DNA of 64,000 nt from Candidatus Omnitrophota bacterium. GTDB lineage: Bacteria > Omnitrophota > Gorgyraeia > Gygaellales > Profunditerraquicolaceae. Shown here piece by piece: positions 1,493 to 39,871 of this stretch (within the stretch, counting starts at the first letter, position 1; each line of letters starts with the position of its first letter). The position numbers and the translations under genes are program-made. The notes below the pieces were generated by a model, which was not told the DNA's origin, did not search any database, and saw nothing but the letters and a program-made list of their open reading frames with translations. The stretch spans positions 311,218 through 375,217 of the forward strand of contig QZKH01000003.1 of the NCBI GenBank assembly GCA_003598025.1, read 5' to 3'.

Positions 1493-2472
1493 TAATACTC
1501 CTTGTTTCTTTTATAATACTCGATTGTCCTGGCTATCCCGTCTTCCAGGCTGACTTTAGGGCTCCAACCTATACATTTATTTATTTTAGTGATATCAGCG
1601 TAATAGTCCCCGGGCTCTATCTCCTTGCGTTCTGGGGTAAATTCGGTAAAACCGACCCTTCCGCTCCCTGCTACTTTGACAATTAACCGCGCCAGTTCTA
1701 TAAAATTAGTGGGTTTACCGCTGCCTACGTTAAACACATTTGAATAAGCTTTTTCTTCCGAAGCTATACGTATCATCGCATCAACCAGGTCATCAATAAA
1801 GAGGAAATCCCTTAAAATCTTTCCGTCACCGAAAACCGGTATCTCCTCATTATCAATAGCCTTACGAATAAACCAATTCAAGACTCCATACTCATCATGA
1901 GCCATTTGGTGCCTGGGGCCGTATGTATTAGTTATCCTGAGAGCTATCGAGCGTATTTTATGGATCTGGTCATAAACCGTAACCAGGTTTTCAGCACAGA
2001 GATTTGTAATCGCATATACACCTCTGGGGTTCATAGGATGGCCTTCATCAACCGGTAAACGTACGCTGTTACCATACTGTCCGCGCGTGCCAGAGAATAA
2101 TATCTTAGCATCTTTATTATATTTACGGCAGGCCTCCAGGATTACCAACGTACCTTCAACATTGATGCTTAAGTCCTGCAGCGGGTTTCTTATGCTATCA
2201 ACGTGGCTTACCTGCCCGGCAAGATGAAAAATCAACTCTTTATCCTTTACAATATTATTTACAGAAAGCTCATCACGGATATCGGACTGGATTATTTCAA
2301 CATCATTTTTTATTGATTCGACATTGAATAAATTGCCTCCTTGTCGTTTAAGCATATTATCAAGTATAGTAAGGCGTGCACCTTGTTTTACCAAAGCAAT
2401 AGCAAGATTGCTTCCTATAAAACCGAGCCCTCCGGTAACAAGTATTTTCTTGTTCTTAAAATCTATGCTCAT
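1483..2472 (-). CDS. NAD-dependent epimerase/dehydratase, CDP-paratose/tyvelose 2-epimerase-like extended SDR
   Basis: 329 aa with VTGGLGFIGSNL, HLAGQVSHVDSIRNP, a YxxxK region and GPRHQ. It is a paralog of the 33810..34805 product. Confidence 0.75.
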   Translation of the reverse strand: MSIDFKNKKILVTGGLGFIGSNLAIALVKQGARLTILDNMLKRQGGNLFNVESIKNDVEIIQSDIRDELSVNNIVKDKELIFHLAGQVSHVDSIRNPLQDLSINVEGTLVILEACRKYNKDAKILFSGTRGQYGNSVRLPVDEGHPMNPRGVYAITNLCAENLVTVYDQIHKIRSIALRITNTYGPRHQMAHDEYGVLNWFIRKAIDNEEIPVFGDGKILRDFLFIDDLVDAMIRIASEEKAYSNVFNVGSGKPTNFIELARLIVKVAGSGRVGFTEFTPERKEIEPGDYYADITKINKCIGWSPKVSLEDGIARTIEYYKRNKEYYWR

Positions 2473-2744
2473 TTATTCTTTCCTCTAAAAAAGATAAAAA
2501 GCGCCAGCAATATCAAAAGGCTAAGAAGAGTTACGCTATTAGCTACTATGATTATATAATTTCTAAGGTGCAGCCCGTAAATCAGCCAGAGGGAAACACC
2601 AGCGGTAAATTGCACAAGCGTTACTACGCTTAAATCATTTACAGACTTGCTTCTGGATATTTTCAATATCTGCGGGACAAAAGAAAACATAGTTAAAGTT
2701 GCTGCCACTGAACCAATAACCTTCCACACTAACCCACTCTCCAT
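2469..2744 (-). CDS. SemiSWEET / PQ-loop sugar transporter (3-TM)
   Basis: 91 aa. FSFVPQILKISRSKSVNDLS...GVSLWLIYGL aligns closely with bacterial SemiSWEETs (PQ motif, identical LWLIYGL). There is a 4-nt overlap with the upstream gene. Confidence 0.8.
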   Translation of the reverse strand: MESGLVWKVIGSVAATLTMFSFVPQILKISRSKSVNDLSVVTLVQFTAGVSLWLIYGLHLRNYIIIVANSVTLLSLLILLALFIFFRGKNK

Positions 2745-2748
2745 ATTA

Positions 2749-5593: not shown

Positions 5594-6452
5594 CTTTTAT
5601 CAGTTTTTTAAGATATCCTCCATAGCTGGTCTTTATTTTATCAGCCAGAGATTTTAACTGCTCCTTATTAATGTAACCCATCCTATACGAAACCTCTTCT
5701 ATACATCCGATCTTTAAACCCTGCCTCTCTTCGACAGTCTTGATAAACAGGGAAGCATCAATGAGGGAATCATAAGTCCCTGTATCCAGCCATGCATAGC
5801 CTCTGCCGAGGATCTTGAGCCTTAATTTGCCTTTTTTTATATAGGCCTTGTTTATATCACTTATTTCTAGTTCTCCTCTTTTGGAAGGTTTAAGGCGCCT
5901 GGCAATTTTAGGCGCTTCGTTGTCATAAAAATATATTCCGCATACAGCCCAGTTAGTCCGGGGTTTCTTCGGTTTCTCTTCTATGGAAATTACGCGGTGC
6001 TCCTTATCAAACTCTATCACCCCGTATCTTGAGGGGTCATTTACGTAGTAGCCGAAAATATAAGCACCGTCATCAAGTGAGGCTGCTTCTTGAACCAACT
6101 CAACCAGCTTATCCCCGTAAAAGATATTATCACCGAGTATGAGGCAGACGCTGTCATTGCCGATAAAATTTTCAGCAATAATCAGACTCTGGGCTATCCC
6201 TAGCGGTTTTTTCTGTATGGCATAAGTAATATTCAAGCCCAGGTCTTTGCCGTTACCAAGAAAATCCCTGAATCTGGGGGTATCTTTAGGAGTGGATATG
6301 ATCAAAATATCCTTAATACCTGCCAGCATTAACACAGACAACGGATAATAAAACATGGGTTTATCGTATATAGGAAGCATCTGTTTGCATATGCCCTTGG
6401 TTATAGGATAAAGCCTGGTCCCGGAACCGCCTGCTAAAATTATCCCCTTCAT
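5568..6452 (-). CDS. rfbA: glucose-1-phosphate thymidylyltransferase
   Basis: MKGIILAGGSGTRLYPIT...YDKPM...LGDNIFYG is the classical RmlA sequence. 294 aa. Confidence 0.9.
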   Translation of the reverse strand: MKGIILAGGSGTRLYPITKGICKQMLPIYDKPMFYYPLSVLMLAGIKDILIISTPKDTPRFRDFLGNGKDLGLNITYAIQKKPLGIAQSLIIAENFIGNDSVCLILGDNIFYGDKLVELVQEAASLDDGAYIFGYYVNDPSRYGVIEFDKEHRVISIEEKPKKPRTNWAVCGIYFYDNEAPKIARRLKPSKRGELEISDINKAYIKKGKLRLKILGRGYAWLDTGTYDSLIDASLFIKTVEERQGLKIGCIEEVSYRMGYINKEQLKSLADKIKTSYGGYLKKLIKDEKNIDIR

Positions 6453-7741
6453 TTGGTCCTCCTTGAAACTTCGCCTTTAGGCAATAAACTGGTTGCAATC
6501 CCCATTAACAGCCAGAAATAAGCAGAATTATTCACTCCCACGGTGATAATAGTTGTAGAAAGAGCAAATATAAGAATAGCGGCAATAACAGTTGTCAACC
6601 CAGCCAATATATTATCGTCAATCCCGGCTGGCTCAAAAGCAGAAGGCCTTCTTATATTTGCTATTGAAAGTCTAAAAAAAGTTATAAATATAAAAATAAA
6701 AGCCCCCAAACCAAGTGTTCCCATCTCTGCAGCCATCTCAAAATATGTGCTATGAGCATGCAGGCTCAATCCAGAAGAAACCGGATAGTCCGCTGGAAGC
6801 ATATATTTACTGCTAGCAGGGACAATCTTCTCAAACATGCCTATACCGGCACCAAATAACGGATAATCCTTAAATATTGACATTGCTAAATTGTATAGCG
6901 GAAGCCTGAATGACCATTCGCTTGGGAAAGGTATGGTTATTATCCTTTGCCTTATGGGCTGCGAATACAGGCTGAATGAAAATATAAAAACCAGCAAAAG
7001 GACTATACCAACCAATAAATGAACGGATTTTTTATTCTTCCTGATTATATATACAAAAATAAAACTGGCTATTATTGATATCCAGGCAGCACGCGTAGCA
7101 TTCCATGCCAAACACAGCAGTAAAAATATTAATATTAAAAATGAGAATGTTCTGATTTTTTTATTACGCGAATAACAAAAAAAAGTAAAAACAAAAGGCG
7201 CAAAATACGCCAGATAAAGCGGGAAACCGTAAAAAGGAATCCACCAACCCCAATAAACAGACCAGAGCCTCTCATACGGAGACTTAACCAGCACCAGGTA
7301 CCTCAAGTAGTCAAATACGCCGCCGAAAGAAAATACTAAGCCCGAGATAAAAAAAGCTCCGGTTAAGATATACAGGTTTTTTCTTGACCTGCCTGCCAGC
7401 CCCAGGCCGAGCCAGAAATAAACCGCATACAAAAGGTAACGGTTAAAAAATATCTTCTGGCTGTGATACGGATCCATGCTCAACAAAATGGAAAAAATAC
7501 AAGCAACAGAAAATAGCGATATCGGTTTATTTAACGGATTTAACGGAATTAATTTACGATAAAAATATTTTTTGTTCTCTAGTAAAATGATAAAAAACCA
7601 GAAAAAGGGAACAAACCAATAAGTTATTTTTCCGACCTCTTTATATCCGTAAGGCGAAAAAATCAAAAAAACGGAAAAAATCAGCAGCATCAATGTTTCT
7701 AAAACTGCACTGATTCTTTTTGAAAATGCCTCATTCATCAA
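6449..7741 (-). CDS. O-antigen ligase / Wzy_C family polytopic membrane protein
   Basis: 430 aa and highly hydrophobic. A periplasmic-loop HAHSTYFEMAAEMG motif resembles the Wzy_C/WaaL signature. Confidence 0.6.
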   Translation of the reverse strand: MMNEAFSKRISAVLETLMLLIFSVFLIFSPYGYKEVGKITYWFVPFFWFFIILLENKKYFYRKLIPLNPLNKPISLFSVACIFSILLSMDPYHSQKIFFNRYLLYAVYFWLGLGLAGRSRKNLYILTGAFFISGLVFSFGGVFDYLRYLVLVKSPYERLWSVYWGWWIPFYGFPLYLAYFAPFVFTFFCYSRNKKIRTFSFLILIFLLLCLAWNATRAAWISIIASFIFVYIIRKNKKSVHLLVGIVLLLVFIFSFSLYSQPIRQRIITIPFPSEWSFRLPLYNLAMSIFKDYPLFGAGIGMFEKIVPASSKYMLPADYPVSSGLSLHAHSTYFEMAAEMGTLGLGAFIFIFITFFRLSIANIRRPSAFEPAGIDDNILAGLTTVIAAILIFALSTTIITVGVNNSAYFWLLMGIATSLLPKGEVSRRTK

Positions 7742-9530
7742 GGATGCCCTTCACTCTTCTGTATAAAACCTGGCAATCTTCGCAGATTTTAATGATCTCT
7801 GATAAACTCTCAATATCAATCTTTGAAATCGCTATTATAACTTCATGAATATTGTTTGTCTTTATAATTTCTGCCATTTTCCTGCGCGTGCCCAGCACGG
7901 ATACGCCATGAATTCTATTGCCGATCTTACTACTTGAATCATCAATAAATCCTATAGGCACAAAATTGAGAGATTTATTCCTTTTTATTTCCCTGATAAC
8001 CATCTCCCCGATATCGCCGGCGCCAAAAATAAGTATCCTTTTGCCTTTATCCTGTATTCTGCTAAAAAACTCCCCTATAATCCTGAATAAAAAGCGCGAA
8101 CCAGTAATCAAAAGCAGCAAAAGAAGCCAGTCAATAAAGAATACAGCCCTGGAATAGTCACGGAACCTGAAAACAAAGGTAACAAATAAAACGGAGACGA
8201 CGGAAGACAAGCTCACAACTTTAAAAATAGTAAGAAAGTCTGCGATACTGATATATCTCCACACTCCGCGGTATAAACCAAAAATAAAGAAAACGAGTAA
8301 TTTCAGGAGTATGATCCACGGGAGGGATTCCTTGATCAAATAAAGACTGGAAGATAATAGCTCTGTCCCCTCAAAACGCAGATAATAAGCAGAATAATAT
8401 GCTACGCAAATAAGCAAGAAATCAAGACTTACTTCGGATATCCTCCGTTTATGCATCAGGAACGTATTGATGAATGTAAAATCCTGGGCAGATCCCTTTG
8501 TTACGGTATAGGCCTTATTTTGTCTGCCAAAGAATGTAGCATCAAAAAGGTAAACTCCCAGGTATATAAGTATAATAGCTCCGAGAAAAGCAAAAATTGC
8601 AGTGACTAAAGGATTTACTTTTGAATAAAGAAGCGAGATAAGGCCGAAAATAATGCTGACGAAGTAAAGAAGGACTACTGTCTTTTTTGGAGAGAGACCA
8701 AGCGCAACTAAATGATGCGAAGTATGGTCCTTGCCCCCTTCAAAAACTTTCTTACCCTGGATTTTTCTGACTATCATCACAAAAACAGTGTCAAATATCG
8801 GGACGCTTAATATAAGGACTGGCACGGAAAGCGTTATGAGTACTCCAGATATATGGTGCATTGTTCCGGCAACAGAAATCACTGCCAAAGAATACCCAAG
8901 AAACATACTCCCGGAATCGCCCATAAATATCTTTGCGGGATTAAAATTGTAAGGCAAGAAACCCAGGCAGGACCCGAAGATTATCAGCCCAATAATCCCA
9001 AGAGGGTTATTTTGATATATGTGCCCTGAAAAGAATAACATCAAGCCGACAATCGCAGCAATACCTGCTGCCAACCCGTCTATATTATCAAGAAGGTTGA
9101 AAGAATTCGTTACGGCAATAATCCAAAATATAGTCAGGGGTATGGCAAACACATCATTTACGGGTAAACCCAATATTATCCCGAATAAAACAGCGATACA
9201 GGAAGCTACAACCTGCATAAACAATTTTATATAGGGGGTCAGCCTCAAATGATCATCAATAATACCAACAATAAATAAGAAAAATCCACCTAAATATAAT
9301 CCGAAAGTTCTGTTATTGACAAGCCCGAATAATAAAGAAACTATAAGGAAAGACAGGTAAATCCCTACCCCGCCAAGCAGCGCTGTAGGATTCTTGTGCC
9401 AGCGGTCTGAACGAGGCTGTGAAATTATCCCCTTCTTTAACGCTATGGCCCTGATGACAGGCGTCAAGACAAGTGAAAAAATAAAAGGAATACCGCTTAG
9501 AAGCAGATAACGCAGAATATCGCTATTCAT
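7731..9530 (-). CDS. WecA/MraY-family polyprenyl-phosphate N-acetylhexosamine-1-phosphate transferase fused to a WbaP-type N-terminal TM + Rossmann-like domain
   Basis: The N-terminal ~390 aa carry IIDDHL and NSFNLLDNIDGLAAG (PNPT/WecA motifs). The C-terminal ~200 aa have four TM helices followed by RILIFGAGDIGEMVIREIKRNKSLNFVPIGFIDDSSSKIGNRIHGVSVLGT. This is characteristic of the non-catalytic N-terminal half of WbaP/PglC-type sugar transferases. Confidence 0.75.
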   Translation of the reverse strand: MNSDILRYLLLSGIPFIFSLVLTPVIRAIALKKGIISQPRSDRWHKNPTALLGGVGIYLSFLIVSLLFGLVNNRTFGLYLGGFFLFIVGIIDDHLRLTPYIKLFMQVVASCIAVLFGIILGLPVNDVFAIPLTIFWIIAVTNSFNLLDNIDGLAAGIAAIVGLMLFFSGHIYQNNPLGIIGLIIFGSCLGFLPYNFNPAKIFMGDSGSMFLGYSLAVISVAGTMHHISGVLITLSVPVLILSVPIFDTVFVMIVRKIQGKKVFEGGKDHTSHHLVALGLSPKKTVVLLYFVSIIFGLISLLYSKVNPLVTAIFAFLGAIILIYLGVYLFDATFFGRQNKAYTVTKGSAQDFTFINTFLMHKRRISEVSLDFLLICVAYYSAYYLRFEGTELLSSSLYLIKESLPWIILLKLLVFFIFGLYRGVWRYISIADFLTIFKVVSLSSVVSVLFVTFVFRFRDYSRAVFFIDWLLLLLLITGSRFLFRIIGEFFSRIQDKGKRILIFGAGDIGEMVIREIKRNKSLNFVPIGFIDDSSSKIGNRIHGVSVLGTRRKMAEIIKTNNIHEVIIAISKIDIESLSEIIKICEDCQVLYRRVKGILDE

Positions 9531-9729
9531 TAGTTTTCAGGTAGTTATTAAGATATTTTGCCAATGAAACTCCTCGGAATAAAGCACGGGGTTTCTTGGA
9601 ACGAAATACTGAGCGCACACTCCATCCGTACCTTGAAAGGTGCGTTTTTGTGGCCGCAAACGAATAAATTTAGAATATTATTTTAACATAAAAAGGCCAA
9701 AAAAAATACATTTTTTTGGGTGGAAGGAT

Positions 9730-10932
9730 CTATGATTTAAGGCCTAAAATCCTCAAATACAGGGTCTCAACATCGCCTAACAGGCGCTCTTTATTAAATC
9801 GTTCAAAAACATATTTGCGGGCAGATGCAATAATAATCTGGCGTAAATTGTCTTGGCGCAGGATAAACTCTATGGCTGATGCCAGGACCTCGGGGCTTGA
9901 TTCCGGCCTGATTAACAACCCCCTTTCCATGACTCTAAAACCATTGCAAGATAAACTCGCTTGGCCGGATAAAGGTCCTCCCAATAAATCACCCACCCCC
10001 CCAACATCTGTTGCGATAACTGCCCTGCCTGATGCCATCGCTTCAATCAAAGAAACAGGCGTACCCTCATTTATTGATGTCAAAACAACCAGGTCTAACT
10101 CTTTATAAATGATACTGAGATCTTCCTGCCAGCCAAGAAAATCAACAAATCTGGATATATCTAGCTGCTCTGCGAGCCTTAAAAGCTGCTCCTTAGACTG
10201 GCCGTCACCAACAATTTTAAACCTTAACTTGTCATTGGATTTAAGTAATACTGCTGCGGCATTAAGGAAAAGCGGATGGTTCTTTATAGGAACCAGCCTG
10301 CCAATTATCCCTATCCTGGGACTAACGCCAGCCTCTTTAGCCTGTATATCAAGAAATCTATCCAACTCGAACCCTAAAGGTATAATTTCTATTTTGCTTC
10401 TATTGCCTATGCCCAGCTCCAGCAGTTCTGCCTTTAAACTTGGGCTTAGGGTGATTATTTTATCCGAAACAGAAGCAAGGATTTTCTCAATCTGGACAAA
10501 TACTTTTGTTACAAAATTACTGAAATACCCGTTAAAGACATGCCCGTGAAAAGTATGGACCATTAATGCCGGCTTTCTATAAAAACGGGCACAATTATAG
10601 ATTACCCCTGCTAGCCTGCCTAATGTGCCAGCCTTAGCAGTATGAGTATGTATTATATCCGGCCTTTCCTTAAAAACGATCCTGATTATTTTTAAAAGAG
10701 CAAAAATATCCCTGATTACGCTGATCTGGCGGGATAACTCTGGCACAAAATACGAACCTTGCCCCTTATCCTCATAACCGGATATCTGAGCCTCACCGTT
10801 TTCAAGGCCGCCATAAACAAGCAAAGATGTAAATTGTTCTTTATTGAGGTATTTTGTCAATAATAAAACGTGTATTGCCGGCCCGCCTATATTCAACCTG
10901 GCAATGATCCTGAGCACTTTTACTTTTTTCAT
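9730..10932 (-). CDS. GT4-family (GT-B) glycosyltransferase
   Basis: 400 aa. The C-terminal EGTPVSLIEAMASGRAVIATDVGG E-x7-E motif is present, along with an N-terminal GT4 domain. Confidence 0.8.
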   Translation of the reverse strand: MKKVKVLRIIARLNIGGPAIHVLLLTKYLNKEQFTSLLVYGGLENGEAQISGYEDKGQGSYFVPELSRQISVIRDIFALLKIIRIVFKERPDIIHTHTAKAGTLGRLAGVIYNCARFYRKPALMVHTFHGHVFNGYFSNFVTKVFVQIEKILASVSDKIITLSPSLKAELLELGIGNRSKIEIIPLGFELDRFLDIQAKEAGVSPRIGIIGRLVPIKNHPLFLNAAAVLLKSNDKLRFKIVGDGQSKEQLLRLAEQLDISRFVDFLGWQEDLSIIYKELDLVVLTSINEGTPVSLIEAMASGRAVIATDVGGVGDLLGGPLSGQASLSCNGFRVMERGLLIRPESSPEVLASAIEFILRQDNLRQIIIASARKYVFERFNKERLLGDVETLYLRILGLKS

Positions 10933-10957
10933 TTAAAGATAAGAAAGGAAGGTGTCT

Positions 10958-11929
10958 TTAAGAAGCTTCTTTTTCTTTAAGATAGACAACGATATCTTTT
11001 ATTATCTGTTTCAGGTTATATGTGGACTTAAAACCGATTAATTTCTCAATCTTGCTGGTATCGGGAACCCTTCTCTGCATATCTTCAAAGCCTTCTTCAT
11101 AAGCCTTCTCATAAGGTATATATGCAATCTTGGAGTTGCTTGCTGTGATATCTATAATCTGGTTAGCGAGGTTTTCTATGCTTACTTCCTCCTGGCTTCC
11201 TATATTAAAAACATCCCCAACGGCCTTTGGTTCATTCATGAGTTTAATTATAGCTCTGACAGCATCTTTAACATGCAGGAAACACCTGGTCTGTTTACCG
11301 TTTCCAAAAATGGTTATAGCCTCATTTTTTAGCGCCTGGGAAACAAAACGCGGCATAACCATGCCATATACTCCCGTCTGCCTCGGCCCTACAGTATTAA
11401 AAAGCCTGACTATCACAGAAGGCAAGCCTTTTTCTTTCCAATAAATATAAGCCAGCATCTCATCGACTGCCTTGGCGGTTGAATACCCCCACCTGCTTTT
11501 TAAAGGAGAGCCCAATATCCTGTCATCGTTTTCTTTTAGCGGGCCATTCTTATTTTTACCGTAAATCTCGGAAGTAGAAGTTATAAGTATTTTCTTCTGG
11601 TAACGGTAAGCCATATCAAGAACTATTTCGCTTCCCTTTATATTAGTCGTCAAAGATTCAAGCGGCCTTTTGACAATAAGCTCAACTCCTACAGCCGCAG
11701 CCAAATGAAAAATAACGTCACAGCGCTCGGCAAGCTTATCTATAAGCCGCTCATTAAGTATGCTGCCGACAACAAAATCAAAATCCGGGTTATTTTTAAA
11801 AGATGCCAAGTTCTCAACCCTGCCGGTTGAAAGGTCATCAAGCACAGTTACTTTACTACCGCCTTTTAAAAGTTCTTCACAAAGATGCGAACCTATAAAT
11901 CCTGCTCCTCCGGTTATTAAAGCTTTCAT
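10958..11929 (-). CDS. NAD-dependent NDP-sugar epimerase/dehydratase
   Basis: MKALITGGAGFIGSHL and YSTAKAVDE (YxxxK) are present. 323 aa extended SDR. Confidence 0.8.
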   Translation of the reverse strand: MKALITGGAGFIGSHLCEELLKGGSKVTVLDDLSTGRVENLASFKNNPDFDFVVGSILNERLIDKLAERCDVIFHLAAAVGVELIVKRPLESLTTNIKGSEIVLDMAYRYQKKILITSTSEIYGKNKNGPLKENDDRILGSPLKSRWGYSTAKAVDEMLAYIYWKEKGLPSVIVRLFNTVGPRQTGVYGMVMPRFVSQALKNEAITIFGNGKQTRCFLHVKDAVRAIIKLMNEPKAVGDVFNIGSQEEVSIENLANQIIDITASNSKIAYIPYEKAYEEGFEDMQRRVPDTSKIEKLIGFKSTYNLKQIIKDIVVYLKEKEAS

Positions 11930-14289: not shown

Positions 14290-16158
14290 TTAAATCCATC
14301 CTTTGAACCAATAATATACGATTGCCGAATACTCATGTATAAAAGCTTTTATTTGAGCCAAATTTACCTGCTGCAAGGTATTTTCTGCCGGGTTGTTTAT
14401 CCTGCGCATATAAAAAATACTTGAAGGAACCGGACAATAAGTAAAATTAATATTGCCTGCCAGTTTCTTACTTACAAGATAAAGCCTGCGCATATGGTAT
14501 GGCGAGCTGACTACTATAATATTCGACATTTTATTCTCACTCAAGAGCTTTTTAATATTAGTCACGTGTTCATATGTATTTTTGGAAGCGCTCTCAAGGA
14601 TTATCGCTTCCTCAGGCACTCCTAAAGAAATAGCTAATGCTTTCATAACAAGCGGTTCATTAAAGATATAAACAAAACCGGATGAAAAAACTAAATGATC
14701 TGCATAGCCCTGTTTATATAGCTCAATTGCATATTTCACCCTCTCTTCATAACTGTATCCTGCCAGGCCGGTTTCCCCAACCCCGCCTGCTAAAACTACT
14801 ATGGCGTCAGATTTAACCGGGGCTTCAGAGATCTTCAATGGATCAGCCAAGAACCACATCAAAGGTGTGTAAAAAATTAGGATATAAAGTGCTCCGGACA
14901 ATAAAGCTGACTTTATAAAATTCCTTTTTGTGCGATTATATATCTTTAAGAAATTATCTTTCCAGTCATGCCTTTTCTTATCTGCCTCATCTATGGCAAC
15001 GCTGATTAAAGCAGTCATCTGGTTTATTCTCTGCTTCCAGCTGTTTTTCTTAGCCACGGCGATCCTTTTATTGAAATCTGCCTGAGAATTTACCGCAATG
15101 GCAGATTTTATCTTATCACAAAAATCTTCCGGTTTATTTGCGACAAAAATAATATTATCATTTTCTTTATTAAAGTACCTTACTTCGGGGATGTCTGTAG
15201 AAATAACTGCCTTACCCATAGCCATATATTCATTTAATTTAGTGGGATACACGTTCTTAGTATACTCTGTCAATAGATAAGGTATTATACAAGCGTCAAA
15301 ACAGTTTATATATGCGGGCAGGCTCTTGTGGTCCTTTTTCCCGAGAAAATAAATATTTCTGATATTACTCAACTCCTGAAGGTCAGTCTGCGCAGGCCCG
15401 ATAAATACAAAGGAATATTCAGGCATTAAAAGAGCTGCCTGCTTTATTAACTTCAGGTCAAGCCAACGGTGCAGGCCGCCTACATAACCTACTATAGGAT
15501 GTTTAATCTGCCTCAGATCATCCGGCACATTCAAAACCCCGGACCTGGCCTTTTCGAAATATTCGTAATCTACCGCAAAAGGAAAAAGATAAACTTTCTT
15601 ATTAAATTGCAGCGAGTAGTTATAAAGTTCATGTGATGTAACAAAAACAAGATCTGCATTTTTTAACAGGTTAATCTCAGAATCAACGATTTTTTTTGCA
15701 AATTTGGAACTGACCCTGAAATTGTCAATACAGTAATAAACCACGATTTTGTAATTAAAATTATTAACGATCTTCATTGTAAGCGGCGTGGGCAAGAAAA
15801 CCCAGATAATCGGGTCAGAAAAATCCATGGCCTTTACCCACTTATTTAATACTGACATAACTATGCGGCTATTGATGAAATTTGCGATTTTCAGGTATGG
15901 AAACGGCAATACTAAAGGAGAATATATGTATAGGTTATTATCCTGCTTACGTATACCGCCAATTCCGGAAAACCAGTTTTTTATCCTTTTTTTTATCCTT
16001 CCGAAATCCCTCACTCCGGGAGAGCGGGCTCCGGTATTTTCAATAAAAAGGACACGGTTATCATTCTTAGCAAGGTTAGACATTATCTCCTGGTGCCCCT
16101 GCCAGATAAAATCCCAATCAATGGAAGATATGCATATTATATTTCTATTCTTTAACAT
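14290..16158 (-). CDS. GT-B glycosyltransferase fused to a C-terminal DUF218 (YdcF/ElyC-like) domain
   Basis: The N-terminal ~390 aa contain PTKLNEYMAMGKAVISTDIPE, a GT4-like motif. A TM segment follows. The C-terminal ~190 aa contain AIVVLAGGVGE...SSGF...IIVVSSPYHMRR, typical of DUF218. Confidence 0.65.
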   Translation of the reverse strand: MLKNRNIICISSIDWDFIWQGHQEIMSNLAKNDNRVLFIENTGARSPGVRDFGRIKKRIKNWFSGIGGIRKQDNNLYIYSPLVLPFPYLKIANFINSRIVMSVLNKWVKAMDFSDPIIWVFLPTPLTMKIVNNFNYKIVVYYCIDNFRVSSKFAKKIVDSEINLLKNADLVFVTSHELYNYSLQFNKKVYLFPFAVDYEYFEKARSGVLNVPDDLRQIKHPIVGYVGGLHRWLDLKLIKQAALLMPEYSFVFIGPAQTDLQELSNIRNIYFLGKKDHKSLPAYINCFDACIIPYLLTEYTKNVYPTKLNEYMAMGKAVISTDIPEVRYFNKENDNIIFVANKPEDFCDKIKSAIAVNSQADFNKRIAVAKKNSWKQRINQMTALISVAIDEADKKRHDWKDNFLKIYNRTKRNFIKSALLSGALYILIFYTPLMWFLADPLKISEAPVKSDAIVVLAGGVGETGLAGYSYEERVKYAIELYKQGYADHLVFSSGFVYIFNEPLVMKALAISLGVPEEAIILESASKNTYEHVTNIKKLLSENKMSNIIVVSSPYHMRRLYLVSKKLAGNINFTYCPVPSSIFYMRRINNPAENTLQQVNLAQIKAFIHEYSAIVYYWFKGWI

Positions 16159-17059: not shown

Positions 17060-18469
17060 CTATCGGTTCCTCTTAAAAATATTGAGAACAGCCGTCTTTG
17101 ACATATTAAGAAACTCCAAAACCAGCATCTTTGCCTCAAACACCGTCTTTAGTTTTGTTATCCTGTCAAATATGTATTCTGGCCTCAAATAGAACCTCCT
17201 GAAGGCAATATCCCTTAATTCTCTCAATCTCTGATAGGGTATACTGCCGGTCTCAATTACGGGGCTAAAAGAACCGTCGAAACTGCCGTCATCTGAGTTG
17301 AGCCAGTCATTCTCCAGACATTCTTTACGCAATTCTGTCCCAACTATGGGAATGGCAAAATTAAACGAAGCATAATCACATCTAAGCTTGATTGCAAAAT
17401 CAATTGTATTTATAATATCTTCTTCGCTTTCACCGGGTATTCCTATAATAAAATATCCTATAGTCTTTATACCATGCTTATGAGCTAACCTGAAAGCCTG
17501 CTCTATGGTCTCAATCTTCATATTTTTTGAATAACGGTCCAATATCATCTGGTTTGCAGATTCTACTCCGATATGTATAGCATGGCAACCTGCGCGCTTC
17601 ATGGAAACCATGCGTTCCTCATCTATTGAATCAGCCCTCATATCACATACCCATCCGAGCTTTATCTTATTTTCTATGATATTCTGGCAAAGCGCCAAAG
17701 CGTGTTTCTTTACGCTTCCAAATGAAACATCCCTGAAAAAAACTTCCCTTATCCCTAATTTCTCTACATACCTTAATTCATCGGTTATGTTATCCACATC
17801 TCTCATAATATACGGTATATTGGAAGAAACACAGAAAGCGCATTTACCTACACACCCATAGCTTGATATCACGCTGGTCAGCGGGATCCTCCTCCCATGG
17901 CTCAGCCTGTATTTGGAAAAGTCAAGCTGTTCATGCCTTGGGACAGGATAACTAAAATAACCTGTAGAATACTTTGTCTTCCCGCAAATTACCACGTCAT
18001 TCTTCCTGACAGCTAAATTGTTTAATTCTGACGTATCATTTTTCAGAAATCCTAATATGTCATCGCTGGTAAAATTTAATAATACTGCGTCCAAAAAAAC
18101 ATTATCCTGCATCTCCTGAACAGGGTTATTCCGCAAAAATCCGCCTTCCCCGATTATAAGCATGTCTCTAAATGAATTCTTTACTTTATAGGCAAATCCC
18201 AAGTCGTTACACTTGCTTGACGACCCGGCCATAAATATTAAAGCATACGGAGCGGCCTTTTTAATAATCTCCATCGTTTGATCGTTAGTAAGCCTTAACG
18301 CATTGGCGTCAATTATACTAATGTCAAATTCTTTAGAAAGTATCCCGCTTAGGACAAGAAGGTCAACCTGAGGCCAGCAATATAGCCCTTTTGAAACTGT
18401 GCTACTATACATATCGCGCATGTTTAAAGTAGGTGCCGGAGGATTCAATAAGACTATTTTTTCTTTCAT
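17060..18469 (-). CDS. B12-binding radical SAM enzyme (class B)
   Basis: 469 aa. There is an N-terminal cobalamin-binding-like domain, then the SYGCVGKCAFC CxxxCxxC cluster and a radical SAM core. Confidence 0.85.
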   Translation of the reverse strand: MKEKIVLLNPPAPTLNMRDMYSSTVSKGLYCWPQVDLLVLSGILSKEFDISIIDANALRLTNDQTMEIIKKAAPYALIFMAGSSSKCNDLGFAYKVKNSFRDMLIIGEGGFLRNNPVQEMQDNVFLDAVLLNFTSDDILGFLKNDTSELNNLAVRKNDVVICGKTKYSTGYFSYPVPRHEQLDFSKYRLSHGRRIPLTSVISSYGCVGKCAFCVSSNIPYIMRDVDNITDELRYVEKLGIREVFFRDVSFGSVKKHALALCQNIIENKIKLGWVCDMRADSIDEERMVSMKRAGCHAIHIGVESANQMILDRYSKNMKIETIEQAFRLAHKHGIKTIGYFIIGIPGESEEDIINTIDFAIKLRCDYASFNFAIPIVGTELRKECLENDWLNSDDGSFDGSFSPVIETGSIPYQRLRELRDIAFRRFYLRPEYIFDRITKLKTVFEAKMLVLEFLNMSKTAVLNIFKRNR

Positions 18470-29023: not shown

Positions 29024-30259
29024 TCAGTTATTTAGTATTGTATTATAAATATGGCTGTAACTTTCTATCCCGTTAACCAGAGATAAATTCGTTACAGCAA
29101 CATTACGGCATCTGTTCTTTAAGCCAGCATCATTGATTAAATACTGCAACTCTTCCGCTGCCCTTCTGTACTCTGCAGAAGAGAATTCTTTTAGCACACT
29201 ACCGATTTTATTTTCTTCTATTAAGCCGGCTGTATCTCCTATGCCGGAATTAATCACCACAGGCAATCCGCAGGCAAGGTATTCTCCGAATTTTGTCGGG
29301 CAAGATGCCAGCTTTGAAAATACCGGTTTAATAAACATAATTGCAGCATCTGCCCATGATAAATATGCCGGCATCTCATAATGCTTCTTGGAAAGGACAG
29401 TAAAATCAGTGTCTTTAATAAATCCGTCATGCATAGAGTTTATAACTAAATCGCGCTCAAAAGGGGTAATTATCAAAAAATGGGCCTTAGGGTCAACAGA
29501 CTTTAGTACTTTAAAGAACTCGATCATCTCTCTGAGCATATACCATGTTCCGATCGAGCCGCAATATACCATCACGGATTTACCTTCGGGAGGAAAATCC
29601 TCAGGCCTTCGATTACGGGTTTGCCTGTTAAAATTGTCTAAGTCAACGCAACAGGGAATTACCTTTATTTTTGGGGCATGTTTTTTGTTAACGAATATCC
29701 CTGACTTCAATATATCTGCCATTTTATTAGTTAAGACGACTGTATAGTCAGAGCCAAAAAGGAATTTTGCATCAAGATAGTTTACCGCCTTAAACATTAT
29801 TTTTGTAATCAAACTTTCTTTGGGCCACATCCCTCCGTCCACATAATCATAGGCTAATACGCCTCTTCTGTCATAGATGAATTTACACCCGCACAGGCGC
29901 GCGCACAGCCAGCCTATCAGAGATGAAACCTCTGCCCTGGCGTGAACTACCCTGATCCTGTTCTTCTTTACAATAAACACTGCATAAATCAAACCGAAGA
30001 TGCAATCAAGCAGAGTCGAAATCATCTGCGGCTTTTTATGATAAACTAGCCTCTTCCAAAATATCCCTGCGTTCCTTAACCGCTCTTCCATTAGCCGCAA
30101 ATGATCCTTATCTCTTAATAAAGCTTTCTTTTCAAAAGAAAGCAGGAAAAAACGCAATTTATCCTTAGACAAGCCTTTTAGATAAGGGATGACCTGCGAT
30201 TGAGCGATAGGCTCAAGCATGCCATCATAGCTGATATAGAGTATATTATTATCCGGCAT
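29024..30259 (-). CDS. GT4-family glycosyltransferase
   Basis: 411 aa with a GT-B architecture. KFGEYLACGLPVVINSGIGD is the C-terminal motif. Confidence 0.7.
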   Translation of the reverse strand: MPDNNILYISYDGMLEPIAQSQVIPYLKGLSKDKLRFFLLSFEKKALLRDKDHLRLMEERLRNAGIFWKRLVYHKKPQMISTLLDCIFGLIYAVFIVKKNRIRVVHARAEVSSLIGWLCARLCGCKFIYDRRGVLAYDYVDGGMWPKESLITKIMFKAVNYLDAKFLFGSDYTVVLTNKMADILKSGIFVNKKHAPKIKVIPCCVDLDNFNRQTRNRRPEDFPPEGKSVMVYCGSIGTWYMLREMIEFFKVLKSVDPKAHFLIITPFERDLVINSMHDGFIKDTDFTVLSKKHYEMPAYLSWADAAIMFIKPVFSKLASCPTKFGEYLACGLPVVINSGIGDTAGLIEENKIGSVLKEFSSAEYRRAAEELQYLINDAGLKNRCRNVAVTNLSLVNGIESYSHIYNTILNN

Positions 30260-31706
30260 AGATATGCTTCCTTATTTTCATTCTCAATATACCGATATTG
30301 CTTCTTAATTTAGGGTAAGAAAGCAGCCAGTTCTCGATTTTGCTGACAAACCGGTTCACATATATCGCAGCAATAATTCTGTTTATCCCCAGATAAGCCG
30401 GCAATCTTTTCTCGAGGAGTTTTCTCCTGACCAGCCTTTCTGCCCTTCTTGCCTCTTTTAAAGCACTTTTTCTTTCAAAGGCGCTAAATTCAGGGGTAGA
30501 AAAAACCGGTAAGTTGCTTAGCTGCGCCGGAGGGTCCATATTCAGGTATTTTTCCGGCGGCATAATAAAATAATCGTTCTTTCTTACCCACTCGAATAAT
30601 TCTGTGCCTGGTATAGGAACTAGATTATTAAATTTAACGTCTCCGACAGGGTATTTTAATGAGAATCTTATCGAATCCCTTACGTCATCAATGGTCTCTC
30701 CGGGAGACCCGATCAGAAAAAATAAACTCACATAAAATCCAAGGTCACAAGCCATTTTTACCGCGTTTTCAATTGTTTCAAAACTTTGCCCCTTCTTTAT
30801 ATTTTGAAGGATGCGGTCATTTCCTGCTTCAACTCCAAAAGCCAACCGTTTAAATCCGGCTTTTTTCATTTTGGCTAATATCTCAAAATCGACCCTGTCT
30901 GCCCTGACGCCATTACCGCACATAAGCATTACCCCATCAAGATCTTCGGATTCGATGGCAGTGCATAATTCTGACATTCTCTGTTTATTGAATGTCGGAT
31001 TATCCTCCTGGAGCCCAAACTCCCTTATCCCTCTCTTATGCCAGTATTTAAGCTCTTCTATGACATTTCCTGCAGAACGAAACCTGATTTTTTTACCGAG
31101 GATATGGCAAGAACAGTAAACACAAGAATATGGACAGCCTCTTGAAGTCACGATGCTTATCCCGTAGCTGTATTTCTTCAATTCGAACTTATCATATTTC
31201 GGGAATGGCAATCTGTCTAAGTCTTCGATAAAATCGCGCTGGCCGTTGTAAAGAAGATCGGCCCCGTTTCTATAAATCAGCCCTTTTATTTTGTCTAAAG
31301 GAGCACCTCTTACTAAATCCAGCAGTGTGAGTTCGCCTTCAAACGTAACGCCGTAATCGATCGAAGCACAATCATTTAAAGCGCGCTCTTTAAAATTCGT
31401 TATATGCGCCCCTCCGCATACTATCTTAATATTGCTAAAATCATTTTTCAACCTGCTAATCAAGCTGTAAATGTTGTTATAACGATATGTCATTAATCCA
31501 ATACCGATCAAATCGGGGGAAAAAGAAATGATCTTTTCCTTTAAATCTTTATAATCATAACCCAGTGCCATATCAAATACATCATGCTCAATCCCATGCG
31601 ACTCCAATACCTGAGAAATATATCCCAGGCCTGCCGGGAGCACAGGAATTGCGTATACTTTAGAAGAATAAAATGGATTGACTAACAGTACTTTTTTAAA
31701 CCTCAT
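30249..31706 (-). CDS. B12-binding radical SAM enzyme (class B)
   Basis: 485 aa. There is an N-terminal B12-binding-like domain, then SRGCPYSCVYCS CxxxCxxC. Confidence 0.85.
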   Translation of the reverse strand: MRFKKVLLVNPFYSSKVYAIPVLPAGLGYISQVLESHGIEHDVFDMALGYDYKDLKEKIISFSPDLIGIGLMTYRYNNIYSLISRLKNDFSNIKIVCGGAHITNFKERALNDCASIDYGVTFEGELTLLDLVRGAPLDKIKGLIYRNGADLLYNGQRDFIEDLDRLPFPKYDKFELKKYSYGISIVTSRGCPYSCVYCSCHILGKKIRFRSAGNVIEELKYWHKRGIREFGLQEDNPTFNKQRMSELCTAIESEDLDGVMLMCGNGVRADRVDFEILAKMKKAGFKRLAFGVEAGNDRILQNIKKGQSFETIENAVKMACDLGFYVSLFFLIGSPGETIDDVRDSIRFSLKYPVGDVKFNNLVPIPGTELFEWVRKNDYFIMPPEKYLNMDPPAQLSNLPVFSTPEFSAFERKSALKEARRAERLVRRKLLEKRLPAYLGINRIIAAIYVNRFVSKIENWLLSYPKLRSNIGILRMKIRKHIYAG

Positions 31707-31721
31707 CCGGGTTACCTCAAG

Positions 31722-32828
31722 TTATTTACCGTTTAAAAATGCATATCTTAGAATATGCGGGTATGCCCTGGGATTATATACCAAACTGGCTAATATCGCG
31801 CACTCAAAACTGCAGAAACAACGCTTCTCTTTGATATATTTGATTATATTCTTTGCCTTTTCAGAAGCTAAAAGCTTATTTATGTTGTAATCAAAATCTC
31901 TTATATTGCCCATATTGGCATCAATAGTCCCCTTTATTGAAGGTAGTATCTCACACGGCACAACCGAACCATCCTCATAAACCTCAATCATCTTTTTTCC
32001 GGCAAGACAAGGATATATATATTTTTTTTCATTGATTATACGTGACACAATACGGTTGGTGTATTTATATAATCCGTAAAAAATACCCGAAAATTGATAT
32101 TTTCTTTTCTTGAGATTATTATATGCAATATCTTCAACTGTTTTAAGGGCCCTTGTGTATATCTGGGGGCTGACATCCAGAGCCATCGTATCCCTGGTAT
32201 TTCCCCTGGCAAGCAGTAATTCATGCTCATCAACTTTTAAGTTATCCTTTACATAAATAAACACCTCTTCAATATTTTCGGCGTTTGACTTTGAAAGAAC
32301 AGTGGTTATTTTTATATATAGATTATCGCGCCCTTCTTTAAGCCTGCTGATCCTGTTATAAGACTCCATGACTTTATCAAAGCAACCCGGTAAATTCCTG
32401 ATTTTATCGTGTGCATCTCCGACAGCATCAATAGAAAGACAAACATTTACGAGGCAGGCCGGACAATTGATAAGTATTTTTCTTACTGCGCTCTCCAGCC
32501 TGTCAGGGAAAGTCCCGTTTGTCGGTAATGTTATAAACCTGGTACCGCTATTCTTATAAAAGGCCTGGACTATCTCAGCAACATCATCTCTTAAGAACGG
32601 CTCTCCCCCTGCTATAGTTAACTGAATAAGTTTATTGAAACTGCTTGAAATTTTTTCAATTTCTTTAAGAGACAACTCATTAGCTTTAACCGCCGAATCC
32701 TGCTTCTGCCAATTAAAACACATGCTGCATTTTGCATTACAACGAGAGGTAATAAATAATATAAGATAAGCAGGGTATTTGGAAAACAGTGAAAAGGCAA
32801 GAAAGAAAATCCTCTGGAACTTCTTCAC
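31722..32828 (-). CDS. radical SAM protein with Cys-rich C-terminal (SPASM/twitch-like) extension
   Basis: ITSRCNAKCSMCF is a CxxxCxxC cluster, and IAGGEPFL is the SAM-binding GGE motif. The C-terminus has CFCSFEC. Confidence 0.75.
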   Translation of the reverse strand: MKKFQRIFFLAFSLFSKYPAYLILFITSRCNAKCSMCFNWQKQDSAVKANELSLKEIEKISSSFNKLIQLTIAGGEPFLRDDVAEIVQAFYKNSGTRFITLPTNGTFPDRLESAVRKILINCPACLVNVCLSIDAVGDAHDKIRNLPGCFDKVMESYNRISRLKEGRDNLYIKITTVLSKSNAENIEEVFIYVKDNLKVDEHELLLARGNTRDTMALDVSPQIYTRALKTVEDIAYNNLKKRKYQFSGIFYGLYKYTNRIVSRIINEKKYIYPCLAGKKMIEVYEDGSVVPCEILPSIKGTIDANMGNIRDFDYNINKLLASEKAKNIIKYIKEKRCFCSFECAILASLVYNPRAYPHILRYAFLNGK

Positions 32829-35632: not shown

Positions 35633-36673
35633 TCATTTAATTTTTCCGAAGGCATAACCGTCCTTCCAGAATAAAATCAGGCCGGCAAGTATAACCGGCA
35701 TAGTATCAACGAACTGATAAACCAGTGAAAAGCTGAGTGCATCGGCCTTATTTATCCCAAAGGCGCCCAAGCCAACTATAAAACCCATCTGCATGGTCCC
35801 TAAGCTACCTAATGACGGTATCATTACAAAGAGGCCGATTACAACGAGAAGAAGACAAGCTGCCATTAGCCCTAATTCTATGGAGAAAACTTTAAACATG
35901 TAATAAATGGTCAAAGCTGCCATAAGCCAGATTATCAGGGATAATACGGCAATCATTGACACCTTCTTCCACCCCCGGAATATGACCAATCCCTCGGAAA
36001 GCTTAGTAAGCCGGACAGAACAAAAATCAGCAAAACTTAACGAAAACACTCCTGCAAACCGGCAAATCAATTTGATAAAATAACCTGAATTCCTGACCCA
36101 TATCAACAGAAATAATAAAATTAAAAAGCATAGTATCCCGAAAATCAATGCCAGCTGCTTTACATGGATGTTGTACAGCGCTTTTTCTAAACCAGTTGTA
36201 CTAAACAGCCCTACCCAGATAAAAATAACAACGCTAAATAAAACTAAAGTTAAAGCATCCCAGAGGCGTTCAAGAAGGACAGTCCCCAGGCAATAACTCT
36301 TGCTTACCGAGGATTTATGCCCCAATATATAAGCCTTATACACTTCCCCGGTCCTTGCCGGTAAGATATTATTAGCCATTAAACCGACAACTGTCGCAGA
36401 AAACAAAAGTTTATTATCCAGCTTTCTATCAAAAAATAAGCCCCAGCGTACTGATCGTATGTAACAATAAAGCCATAAACTTAATAATGCCGGTGCGACA
36501 TAAATATACTTCCCTTGCAAGATATAGGAAAATATCCCGGAGATAGTCGTTCCTTTAAAAGCGATGTATAACGCAGACAAAGTAACGAAAAACGATAATA
36601 GCAATGGTAAAATCTTAGTTTTTTTCATTTTTAAAAGAATTCTTATAAGCTGTCCAAACAACAGAGATACCAT
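35633..36673 (-). CDS. flippase-like polytopic membrane protein (LPG-synthase-TM/UPF0104-like)
   Basis: About 8 TM helices. A polyprenyl-phosphate-sugar GT2 immediately downstream and a GT-C protein upstream is the classic three-gene arrangement. Confidence 0.5.
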   Translation of the reverse strand: MVSLLFGQLIRILLKMKKTKILPLLLSFFVTLSALYIAFKGTTISGIFSYILQGKYIYVAPALLSLWLYCYIRSVRWGLFFDRKLDNKLLFSATVVGLMANNILPARTGEVYKAYILGHKSSVSKSYCLGTVLLERLWDALTLVLFSVVIFIWVGLFSTTGLEKALYNIHVKQLALIFGILCFLILLFLLIWVRNSGYFIKLICRFAGVFSLSFADFCSVRLTKLSEGLVIFRGWKKVSMIAVLSLIIWLMAALTIYYMFKVFSIELGLMAACLLLVVIGLFVMIPSLGSLGTMQMGFIVGLGAFGINKADALSFSLVYQFVDTMPVILAGLILFWKDGYAFGKIK

Positions 36674-38435: not shown

Positions 38436-39871
38436 TAAGGTTGCTCCTTCAGTATCTTTTTACCGGATATTTTTGTGATACCGATTGCTGCCCAGATAGC
38501 TACTACAGGAGTAATCATATCCCTGAAGCGTAATACCGTCCCGATATTTGCCTGGGTCAAAGACAAAGCAGAAACCAATAAAAACGAATAAATCAAAAGA
38601 ATCAGATACCTCTTCCAGGCATAACGAAGAGAAATAAATAAACCTAAAGGCGAAAGTAAAACCATAATATACCAAAGCAACATCTGAGGATAAGCCAAAA
38701 ACATGGTTTTTTTGACAGGTCTGAATATATTAGGCTCAAAGATGAAATGAAACAAACCTCTCATATAAGCCATTATATATTGCCCATAGCTTAGCTTGTT
38801 AGCAGGATACACATAACACTCTTCATCAGGCTGCTTTCCAAATACAAAATATGGATTTAAGATATAGTACTTGTCTTCAAGTATCCTGTAGTTATTCCCG
38901 GGCGTCTTTGCTGAAGCCTGATGCAAAGATAACACCCTGAATATTTTTTGACGGAATATCTTATCGATCTTGGCCGGGCTAAGCCTGAATAGCACTATAG
39001 ATGAAAAAATAATGATTAATACAATGAATATCTTCACTTTAAGACGCGGGTGTCCGGAAACAGCTAAAGCTGTTATAAATAAACTAAGCAACACTATTGG
39101 CATAATAAATTTTCTCAGGGTTGAGAGTATAAATAATGCAATAAATATCGCAAAAAATAATATTATCTTCTGCCGGACATAAGGATAAGAAGTCAATTTT
39201 ATAAAAAGCCAGAATATGCATAAAATCACCAGGATTAAAGATGCGTCTTTAAGATTGGTTATGGACCACAACAGCAATGACGGAAAAAATGCCATTAACA
39301 AAGCGGATATTCTGCTTACATTTAAAGAAAAAACCTGCCGGCAGACATAATAACAAACAACCGGTATCAGTGAACCAAAAAGGCAATTCATTATGGCACT
39401 TGATACAGGGCTGAAACCAAACAAGTAATTAAACCCGGCTATAATAAAATTGTAGCCCTGCCATCCATAAACAGGGTTATAAGCCGAGCCAAGAACTTTC
39501 TGGGTAAGAAAAAAACCTCTCCAGTCTAAAGACATCCAATACCCTCTCAATGTATAGTAGGCGCTGTCACCGATGAACTTAACAGACCAGCCAGGATATC
39601 CGGGATAAAATAAAACTTCGTTTCTTGAAACCATAAACGCGCTGACTGAAAAAAGCAGAAGCAGCCTTAACAAAAATGCAGCCATAAAAAGATTCATTAT
39701 AAACCTGGATTCGGCATCAGCTTTTATATTTTTTTTAAGAACTACCAGTAAAACAACTAACGAAACAGTAAAACCTCCGGGACTTAAGAAAAATAATAAC
39801 CCTAAGAGTGCTGATATGATCACAACCTTTATATCGATCATCGCCGCTATCATCTCTCTATCGCTTTCCAT
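38435..39871 (-). CDS. polytopic membrane protein, GT-C-like candidate
   Basis: 478 aa with about 11 TM helices. Its start codon overlaps the stop of the upstream gene by 1 nt. Confidence 0.4.
   Translation of the reverse strand: MESDREMIAAMIDIKVVIISALLGLLFFLSPGGFTVSLVVLLVVLKKNIKADAESRFIMNLFMAAFLLRLLLLFSVSAFMVSRNEVLFYPGYPGWSVKFIGDSAYYTLRGYWMSLDWRGFFLTQKVLGSAYNPVYGWQGYNFIIAGFNYLFGFSPVSSAIMNCLFGSLIPVVCYYVCRQVFSLNVSRISALLMAFFPSLLLWSITNLKDASLILVILCIFWLFIKLTSYPYVRQKIILFFAIFIALFILSTLRKFIMPIVLLSLFITALAVSGHPRLKVKIFIVLIIIFSSIVLFRLSPAKIDKIFRQKIFRVLSLHQASAKTPGNNYRILEDKYYILNPYFVFGKQPDEECYVYPANKLSYGQYIMAYMRGLFHFIFEPNIFRPVKKTMFLAYPQMLLWYIMVLLSPLGLFISLRYAWKRYLILLIYSFLLVSALSLTQANIGTVLRFRDMITPVVAIWAAIGITKISGKKILKEQP

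Follow-up and report, generated by a model that had tools for sequence, protein, structure and literature searches.

A predicted initiating transferase of the PNPT superfamily fused to a 4TMH-PF13727 module of the PglF/WbpM/CapD dehydratase type in Candidatus Omnitrophota

Transferases of the PNPT superfamily move a sugar-1-phosphate from a uridine diphosphate (UDP)-sugar onto undecaprenyl phosphate, with release of uridine monophosphate (UMP). Two of them, WbpL of Pseudomonas aeruginosa and WecA of Escherichia coli, act as initiating enzymes of surface-glycan clusters and are alike in their fold, in their DD and NxxNxxDxxDG motifs and in their topology (11 transmembrane (TM) helices, C-terminus in). 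The large monotopic phosphoglycosyl transferases (PGTs; WbaP, WcaJ, CpsE, EpsZ) carry out the same overall reaction, again releasing UMP, but with an unrelated catalytic domain (monotopic Bac_transf instead of polytopic PNPT). An accessory module made of four TM helices and a domain termed DUF (4TMH-DUF, PF13727) is common to the large monotopic PGTs and to PglF-like dehydratases (Dodge et al. 2024, PMC10942596), and the same authors called its role 'puzzling', two functionally unrelated enzyme classes carrying it. Here we describe a protein in which this module stands behind a PNPT. The protein is encoded in a 64-kb stretch of a Candidatus Omnitrophota genome (assembly GCA_003598025.1, contig QZKH01000003.1, positions 311,218 to 375,217), hereafter called the window. 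Three unrelated catalytic scaffolds thus bear the module, namely monotopic PGTs, dehydratases that belong to the SDR (short-chain dehydrogenase/reductase) family and polytopic PNPTs, the last being its third host. Overall, the best explanation, and one that we consider probable, is that an initiating PNPT became fused to a dehydratase-type module, that the dehydratase was lost and that the module serves in sensing or assembly.

The gene is an uninterrupted open reading frame (ORF) on the minus strand (7731..9530 of the window), with an ATG start, 599 codons and a stop; Pfam, NCBIfam and an AlphaFold2 (AF2) model all describe it as a PNPT fused to a module of four TM helices and a Rossmann-like domain. 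A first reading made from the letters of the DNA, which we call the sequence-only reading, had proposed a two-domain ORF at these coordinates. Both the coordinates and the two-domain organization were borne out, the strand being minus, and all the motifs that it had quoted (IIDDHL, NSFNLLDNIDGL, GAGDIGEMVIREI, VPIGFIDD and IHGVSVLG) are present in the translation. The two Pfam domains that it had anticipated, Glycos_transf_4 and CoA_binding_3, were both found. Its division into two parts is kept with other extents: the PNPT ends near residue 343 and not ~390, and the appended part comprises ~240 residues and not ~200. A plus-strand reading of the same interval was ruled out, as its frame is full of stops. 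Given the Pfam and NCBIfam domain matches detailed below, the two-part composition is real and far beyond chance.

The PNPT catalytic domain, of the WecA/WbpL/MraY type, corresponds to residues 1-343 (8502..9530, minus strand) and contains 11 TM helices, as judged from Pfam, Foldseek and the helices of the AF2 model. Glycos_transf_4 (PF00953) matches residues 76-222 in Pfam (E = 1.1e-35; 123.4 bits for a cutoff of 27). The motif IIDDHL begins at residue 90 and includes the DD motif, D92-D93 (9252..9257, minus strand), at the cytoplasmic end of TM3; in the two family alignments, D92 never varies and at least 90% of the members have D93. The motif NSFNLLDNIDGL begins at residue 142 and corresponds to the PNPT signature N142-x2-N145-x2-D148-N-I-D151-G152 (9075..9107, minus strand), predicted to be cytoplasmic, of which N142, N145, D148, D151 and G152 are invariant across 78 family members. 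Foldseek superposed the N-terminal half on MraY and on human GPT (DPAGT1), with TM-scores by target of 0.60-0.81. By homology, residues 1-343 are a PNPT of the WecA/WbpL type that keeps every catalytic motif intact and is predicted to catalyze sugar-1-phosphate transfer.

The fusion protein belongs to the PNPT superfamily and is neither a WecA equivalog nor a large monotopic PGT nor a dehydratase. The NCBIfam WecA model (TIGR02380) aligned to residues 16-321 with 101.6 bits, below its equivalog cutoff of 326.05. In Pfam, Bac_transf (PF02397) gave no match in the window protein at E<=1, the chain ending at the Rossmann domain. The Polysacc_synt_2 SDR domain with its TDK...Mx3K motifs is likewise absent from the 599-residue protein according to Pfam; the relatives P0179, P0251, L019 and L037 do carry it. 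Residues 1-343 share their fold, the DD and NxxNxxDxxDG motifs and the 11-TM topology with WbpL and WecA, which, for their part, are without the ~240 extra C-terminal residues (four TM helices and the Rossmann domain) of the window protein.

The appended part is reached through a cytoplasmic linker (residues 344-363; 8442..8501, minus strand), which ends in a conserved HKRR; K361 and R363 are invariant in alignment A1. It is followed by a four-TM-helix bundle (residues 364-492; 8055..8441, minus strand), assigned from the AF2 helices (348-385, 389-416, 429-454 and 461-492) and from the alignment to the TM region of EPS_sugtrans. The chain is completed by a Rossmann-like domain predicted to be cytoplasmic (residues 493-599; 7734..8054, minus strand), which is the PF13727 core or 'DUF', recognized by Pfam and by its match to the solved structure 3nkl; its strands in the AF2 model are 497-502, 523-529, 543-547, 563-566 and 589-592. 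The Pfam match to CoA_binding_3 (PF13727) covers residues 417-588 (6e-16; 59.4 bits for a cutoff of 25), with a PglD_N match nested inside it. Within the Rossmann domain, GAGDIGEMVIREI begins at residue 503, VPIGFIDD at residue 524 and IHGVSVLG at residue 540. Motif conservation points to a putative nucleotide-binding loop, G503-A-G-D-I-G-E509 (8004..8024, minus strand), and to a paired acidic site, D530-D531 (7938..7943, minus strand): among the 78 members, G503, A504 and D530 are invariant, and G505, G508 and D531 are found in 90% or more. The same GxGxxG/DD pattern also occurs in 3nkl and in WbaP.

The AF2 model of the whole chain, built from the 78-sequence alignment, has a mean predicted local distance difference test (pLDDT) score of 92.1 and a predicted template-modelling score (pTM) of 0.89; an earlier run with 53 close homologues had given a pLDDT of 67.5 and was unreliable over residues 240-490. 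The predicted topology comprises 15 helices (11 + 4), with 15 lysines and arginines in the inside loops and 3 in the outside ones. With its N-terminus outside, the protein would expose DD92-93, the N142-G152 signature, the D205 loop, the H269/H272 loop and the Rossmann domain to the cytoplasm. In this model, an 11-TM PNPT with a cytoplasmic end exactly suits a module that itself starts in the cytoplasm, and the four added helices are predicted to put the Rossmann domain back on the cytoplasmic face, the same as that of the PNPT active-site loops. We also compared the conservation of the segments: the mean identity to the window protein is 69% in the four-TM bundle, 59% in the PNPT core, 58% in the Rossmann domain and 29% in the linker. 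Selection on the module is therefore no weaker than selection on the enzyme.

The fusion of a PNPT and this module is genuine, conserved and present in several phyla. Among the matches listed (n = 120), which stem from many independent assemblies, every one is ~600 residues long, has the same Pfam architecture and, the window's own protein excepted, is 57-65% identical to it. In a scan of species-representative genomes, single ORFs of 613-647 codons containing both parts were found in Desulfatitalea, Salinivenus, Terriglobales, Desulfovibrionaceae and Fibrobacterales, and the architecture occurs in at least five phyla. With all 120 listed matches and at least five phyla, the fusion is not rare, contrary to the sequence-only reading, which had called it unusual. 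Precomputed database annotations already show the two domains together, and NCBI lists the identical protein, from a Candidatus Omnitrophota metagenome-assembled genome (MAG), as hypothetical. In the open-access literature searched, we met no account of a polytopic PNPT bearing PF13727, and the architecture is apparently undescribed there. As regards annotation, members of the family should not be named WecA or 'hypothetical'.

It is very improbable that two genes were joined here by an error of assembly or gene calling, or that the C-terminal part is a functionless, decaying remnant. Module-only ORFs and split calls do occur in public assemblies: P0144 comes from a low-coverage contig of 943 nt, and P0224, which is followed by a gene encoding an SDR and a receiver domain, may reflect gene splitting or a frameshift (both were left out of the evidence). 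However, the 120 listed proteins and the genomes of five other lineages share a continuous architecture, at odds with the assembly artefact that the sequence-only reading had itself raised, and the whole chain was modelled with confidence, as indicated by its pTM of 0.89. As for a vestige, the module is conserved as much as the catalytic domain, or more.

Where the module comes from was judged from its relatives. The NCBIfam model EPS_sugtrans (TIGR03025, 445 positions) aligns to residues 369-590 through its positions 2-218 (5e-25, 88 bits), a stretch that stands for the N-terminal, non-catalytic half of the large monotopic PGTs; the NCBIfam models of WcaJ and WbaP also align to residues 369-590 (model positions 2-221), and Foldseek matched the WbaP structure 8T53 over 247 columns. 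The homology to the non-catalytic N-terminal half of WbaP-type PGTs that the sequence-only reading had claimed is thus upheld by the TIGR03025 and 8T53 matches, and the module is not the generic NAD-binding domain, unrelated to WbaP, that would have spoken against it. It went too far in making the module a hallmark of WbaP, since PglF-like dehydratases have it in common, and in speaking of a 'WbaP/PglC-type' region, PglC being a small PGT without the 4TMH-DUF module (PMC10942596).

These alignments are also what would favor a domain swap, in which a PNPT would have received, at its C-terminal end, the non-catalytic N-terminal half of a WbaP-type PGT and with it a function in chain length or in Wzx/Wzy coupling. 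The closest relatives of the module make this origin distinctly unlikely. Residues 360-599 were compared by phmmer with 1.84 billion cluster representatives, which gave 12,066 matches at E<=1e-3 (465 at E<=1e-30); the best 150 of the 12,066 were classed by local phmmer with PNPT and SDR seeds only, plus Pfam spot checks. Among these 150 proteins, 77 consist of a PNPT and the module (one of them, P0216, also with a deacetylase), 4 of a PNPT, the module and Polysacc_synt_2, and 25 of the module and a Polysacc_synt_2 dehydratase, while 44 contain the module only and are mostly fragments. Against the 25 dehydratases stand 0 recognized Bac_transf PGTs, Bac_transf having been excluded by Pfam only in the spot-checked proteins. 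All the identified non-fusion relatives in the best 150 are of the PglF/WbpM/CapD type (33-41% identity, E from 1e-39 to 1e-48).

Profile and structure comparisons go the same way. A profile of the fusion-family module scored 60 bits over 100 residues (E = 1.9e-15) on 3nkl, a WbpM-type fragment from Vibrio fischeri, versus ~34 bits over ~190 residues (E about 1e-7) on WbaP chains; the latter match counts for a domain swap, but the score per residue is ~3-fold higher for 3nkl. In Foldseek, 3nkl is the best solved match and superposes with a root-mean-square deviation of 1.7 A over 101 columns. Judged from these comparisons, the module is homologous to that of both enzyme classes and nearer to the version found in the membrane-bound UDP-GlcNAc 4,6-dehydratases of the PglF/WbpM/CapD type than to that of WbaP. 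These dehydratases, whose 4TMH-PF13727 module is the closest non-fusion relative of that of the window protein, carry it N-terminal to their SDR domain, whereas the window protein has no SDR domain and carries the module C-terminal to another enzyme. In the large PGTs, the homologous accessory module, also on the cytoplasmic face, is more distant, and the order of the domains is reversed. Note that the chain-length or Wzx/Wzy-coupling role invoked by the sequence-only reading rests on an older topology of WbaP: the WbaP domain is today assigned to the cytoplasm and associated with uridine-nucleotide binding and dimerization, and is not a periplasmic chain-length determinant (PMC10942596).

A donor other than a PGT is directly at hand. 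A PNPT gene of ~350 codons is followed 3 nt later by a gene encoding a 649-residue protein with CoA_binding_3 and Polysacc_synt_2 both in Ampullimonas aquatilis (L019, complete genome) and in a Desulfobulbaceae MAG (L037). This split PNPT/dehydratase pair mirrors, by analogy, the wbpL/wbpM gene pair, which is conserved in Pseudomonas (PMC6804347). Furthermore, four proteins of 936-991 residues (P0128, P0135, P0143 and P0251) are triple fusions of the type PNPT-module-SDR, with the same order of PNPT and module as in the window protein and with Polysacc_synt_2 retained. P0251, whose gene lies on a 940-kb contig beside GT2, Wzy_C, GT4 and SDR genes, has retained both PglF-type motifs, S/T-D-K and M-x3-K, in its SDR domain (catalytic motifs as defined in PMC8987622). 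By contrast, the motifs are degenerate in P0128 (TSK, Ax3R), P0135 (SIK, Lx3R) and P0143 (IEK, Fx3K), which, from their sequences, appear to be pseudo-dehydratase intermediates. Since split pairs and triple fusions exist, the donor of the module was most likely a pathway-partner dehydratase and not the rival PGT superfamily.

In a crude neighbor-joining tree of the module, the free dehydratases form a basal grade and the PNPT fusions a derived cluster, in which P0128, P0135 and P0143 fall amid the double fusions. WbaP, of which one fragment served as the sole large-PGT outgroup, is on a very long branch, another point against a domain swap. P0251 groups with the free dehydratases, an indication that it arose by an independent fusion. 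Support values are lacking for this tree, and its internal branches are short. On the origin that we favor, adjacent wbpL-like (PNPT) and wbpM-like (dehydratase) genes would have fused, and the SDR dehydratase domain would then have decayed and been lost, the module being kept.

What the module does may be approached from the enzymes in which it has been studied. The isolated DUF of WbaP is stabilized by UMP, UDP and uridine triphosphate, and UMP inhibits WbaP with a half-maximal inhibitory concentration (IC50) of 4.1 uM; the same domain makes most of the dimer interface through a swap of beta-hairpins (PMC10942596). On the dehydratase side, full-length CapD is reportedly inhibited by UDP-MurNAc-pentapeptide and by lipid II (PMC6441080), and the N-terminal region of WbpM is separable from catalysis and dispensable for it (PMC8987622). 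From the conserved motifs and by analogy with these proteins, we infer that the appended part serves in assembly or in the sensing of uridine nucleotides. Its task, as proposed for WbaP and for PglF-like enzymes, would be to bind uridine nucleotides or UDP-sugars, to mediate the assembly of oligomers, or both, and it would now act directly on the PNPT and not on a dehydratase. The first membrane-committed step would thereby be tied to the status of UMP, of a UDP-sugar or of the lipid carrier.

Several points weigh against this reading or limit it. Ligand binding by the Rossmann domain is proposed on the strength of motif conservation and of one nano differential scanning fluorimetry (nDSF) study of WbaP. 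The match to enterobacterial WecA lies far under the equivalog cutoff. The NCBIfam profiles of large PGTs match the module strongly (88 bits), which makes 'closer to dehydratases' a matter of degree inside a single family of homologous modules. The order of events (fusion followed by loss, versus capture of the module followed by gain of an SDR domain) is drawn from an unsupported tree and is not proven, and the degenerate triple fusions examined are three in number. Finally, the chain of the window protein ends at residue 599, 7 residues past the last modelled strand (589-592), which leaves no room for a hairpin: the dimerizing beta-hairpin of WbaP (PMC10942596) appears to be absent from the model, and any dimerization would need another way.

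The retention of the module under strong selection after the probable loss of the dehydratase argues for a pathway-level job at initiation and not for a mere dehydratase anchor. A more general proposal would be that 4TMH-PF13727 controls undecaprenyl-phosphate-dependent pathways as an autonomous and portable unit, and that the fusion kept it because its real target has always been the initiating transferase; in split WbpL/WbpM systems, the module of the dehydratase would then dock on the PNPT and regulate it, the two forming a metabolon that senses UMP, a UDP-sugar or the lipid carrier. We regard this generalization as possible, if doubtful. In any case, the family offers a natural experiment on the role of the module: a single polypeptide lends itself to assay with or without it, and split, triple-fusion and pseudo-dehydratase forms are available for comparison.

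Two variations on the architecture were met among the relatives. In P0216 (888 residues), Polysacc_deac_1 and DUF3473 are fused behind the PNPT and the module; the same pair is free-standing in the window (44335..45183, minus strand), and a Polysacc_deac_1 gene lies near the fusion gene of the L081 locus (2038-2820). Some PglF-like dehydratases carry a C-terminal response-regulator receiver domain (P0190, 760 residues; L086, 5161-6285), which recalls the activation of the large PGT EpsZ by the single-domain response regulator EpsW (PMC12802240).

The immediate neighbors of the fusion gene are themselves conserved. Downstream, a gene encoding a Wzy_C-family membrane protein of the ligase/polymerase type (6449..7741, minus strand; Wzy_C, 3.9e-20) overlaps with its start the 3' end of the fusion gene by 11 nt, and the same overlapping neighbor is found in three other Omnitrophota loci, L081, L082 and L083. 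Upstream lie a GT4 glycosyltransferase gene (9730..10932, minus strand) and a gene for a soluble extended-SDR enzyme resembling 4,6-dehydratases or decarboxylases (10958..11929, minus strand), both conserved in L081 and L082. The core shared by the window and L081-L083 thus reads soluble SDR, GT4, sometimes a radical S-adenosylmethionine (SAM) gene, fusion and Wzy_C (window 6449..11929, minus strand; L081 5720-11022; L082 4195-11043); in L082 and L083, the fusion gene has a radical-SAM gene directly upstream. After the core, L081 and L082 have a gene for a ~750-residue protein with a Spermine_synth domain and then those for PGK, TIM and SecG. This arrangement suggests a housekeeping short-glycan pathway, and the PNPT-module architecture appears to mark the SDR-GT4-PGT-Wzy_C core in Omnitrophota.

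This gene order bears on another possible role of the module, chiefly that of a scaffold that docks the makers of the UDP-sugar (the soluble SDR and an aminotransferase) or the translationally coupled Wzy_C protein into a membrane metabolon, in place of nucleotide sensing. Apart from the conserved core with its overlapping fusion and Wzy_C genes, this role would fit the similar gene set around the triple fusion P0251, the fact that conservation peaks in the four-TM bundle and not in the Rossmann domain, and the presence of other enzymes behind the module (the SDR domain, or the deacetylase of P0216). We nevertheless consider a chiefly scaffolding role unlikely: the GxGxxG/DD site, which hardly varies if at all, speaks for the binding of a small ligand. 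The two roles are not mutually exclusive.

The fusion gene is preceded by an intergenic region of 199 bp (9531..9729, minus strand), probably a promoter or a leader, in which Rfam gave nothing significant and neither a sigma-70 site nor a terminator on the minus strand was convincing. This is, as the sequence-only reading had stated, the only such gap in the 5' half of the window: the other apparent gap (2473..2748) holds an ORF. Indeed, a 91-codon ORF of the PQ-loop/MtN3 type (SemiSWEET-like; 2469..2744, minus strand) fills this apparent 276-bp gap between two SDR genes.

As a whole, the 64-kb window is one minus-strand Wzx/Wzy-type polysaccharide cluster. All ORFs of at least 150 codons with a protein-family match are on the minus strand, their boundaries are mostly overlapping or near-abutting, and the G+C content is 39%. 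The cluster encodes two Wzx proteins, two Wzy_C proteins, two GT-C glycosyltransferases of the PMT_2 type and many GT2 and GT4 glycosyltransferases, together with rmlA/B/D-like and gmd genes, a DegT aminotransferase, several SDRs, radical-SAM enzymes and a phosphonate set. Because the 64-kb window contains no second Glycos_transf_4 gene and no Bac_transf gene, the fusion is its sole recognizable initiating enzyme.

The phosphonate set consists of a fusion of a phosphoenolpyruvate (PEP) mutase and a cytidylyltransferase-like domain, a thiamine pyrophosphate (TPP)-dependent decarboxylase-like enzyme and an Fe-alcohol dehydrogenase, and adjoins genes for phosphodiesterase-family, sulfatase-family, CDP-alcohol phosphatidyltransferase and LPG_synthase_TM proteins (set and adjoining genes: 52246..55821, minus strand; 55840..57591; 51116..52249; 39850..40671; 35633..36673). 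It suggests a surface glycan or lipid decorated with phosphonate. Five radical-SAM genes, at least two of which encode B12-binding domains, are on the minus strand at 17060..18469, 30249..31706, 31722..32828, 40572..41996 and 59103..60611. GT1-DUF218 fusions of 622 and 624 residues are encoded near the PNPT-module gene both in the window (14290..16158, minus strand) and in L081 (2836-4710), and a DUF4330 gene follows them. Lastly, a 685-residue fusion of a SAM methyltransferase and a GT4 glycosyltransferase is encoded at 47575..49632 (minus strand).

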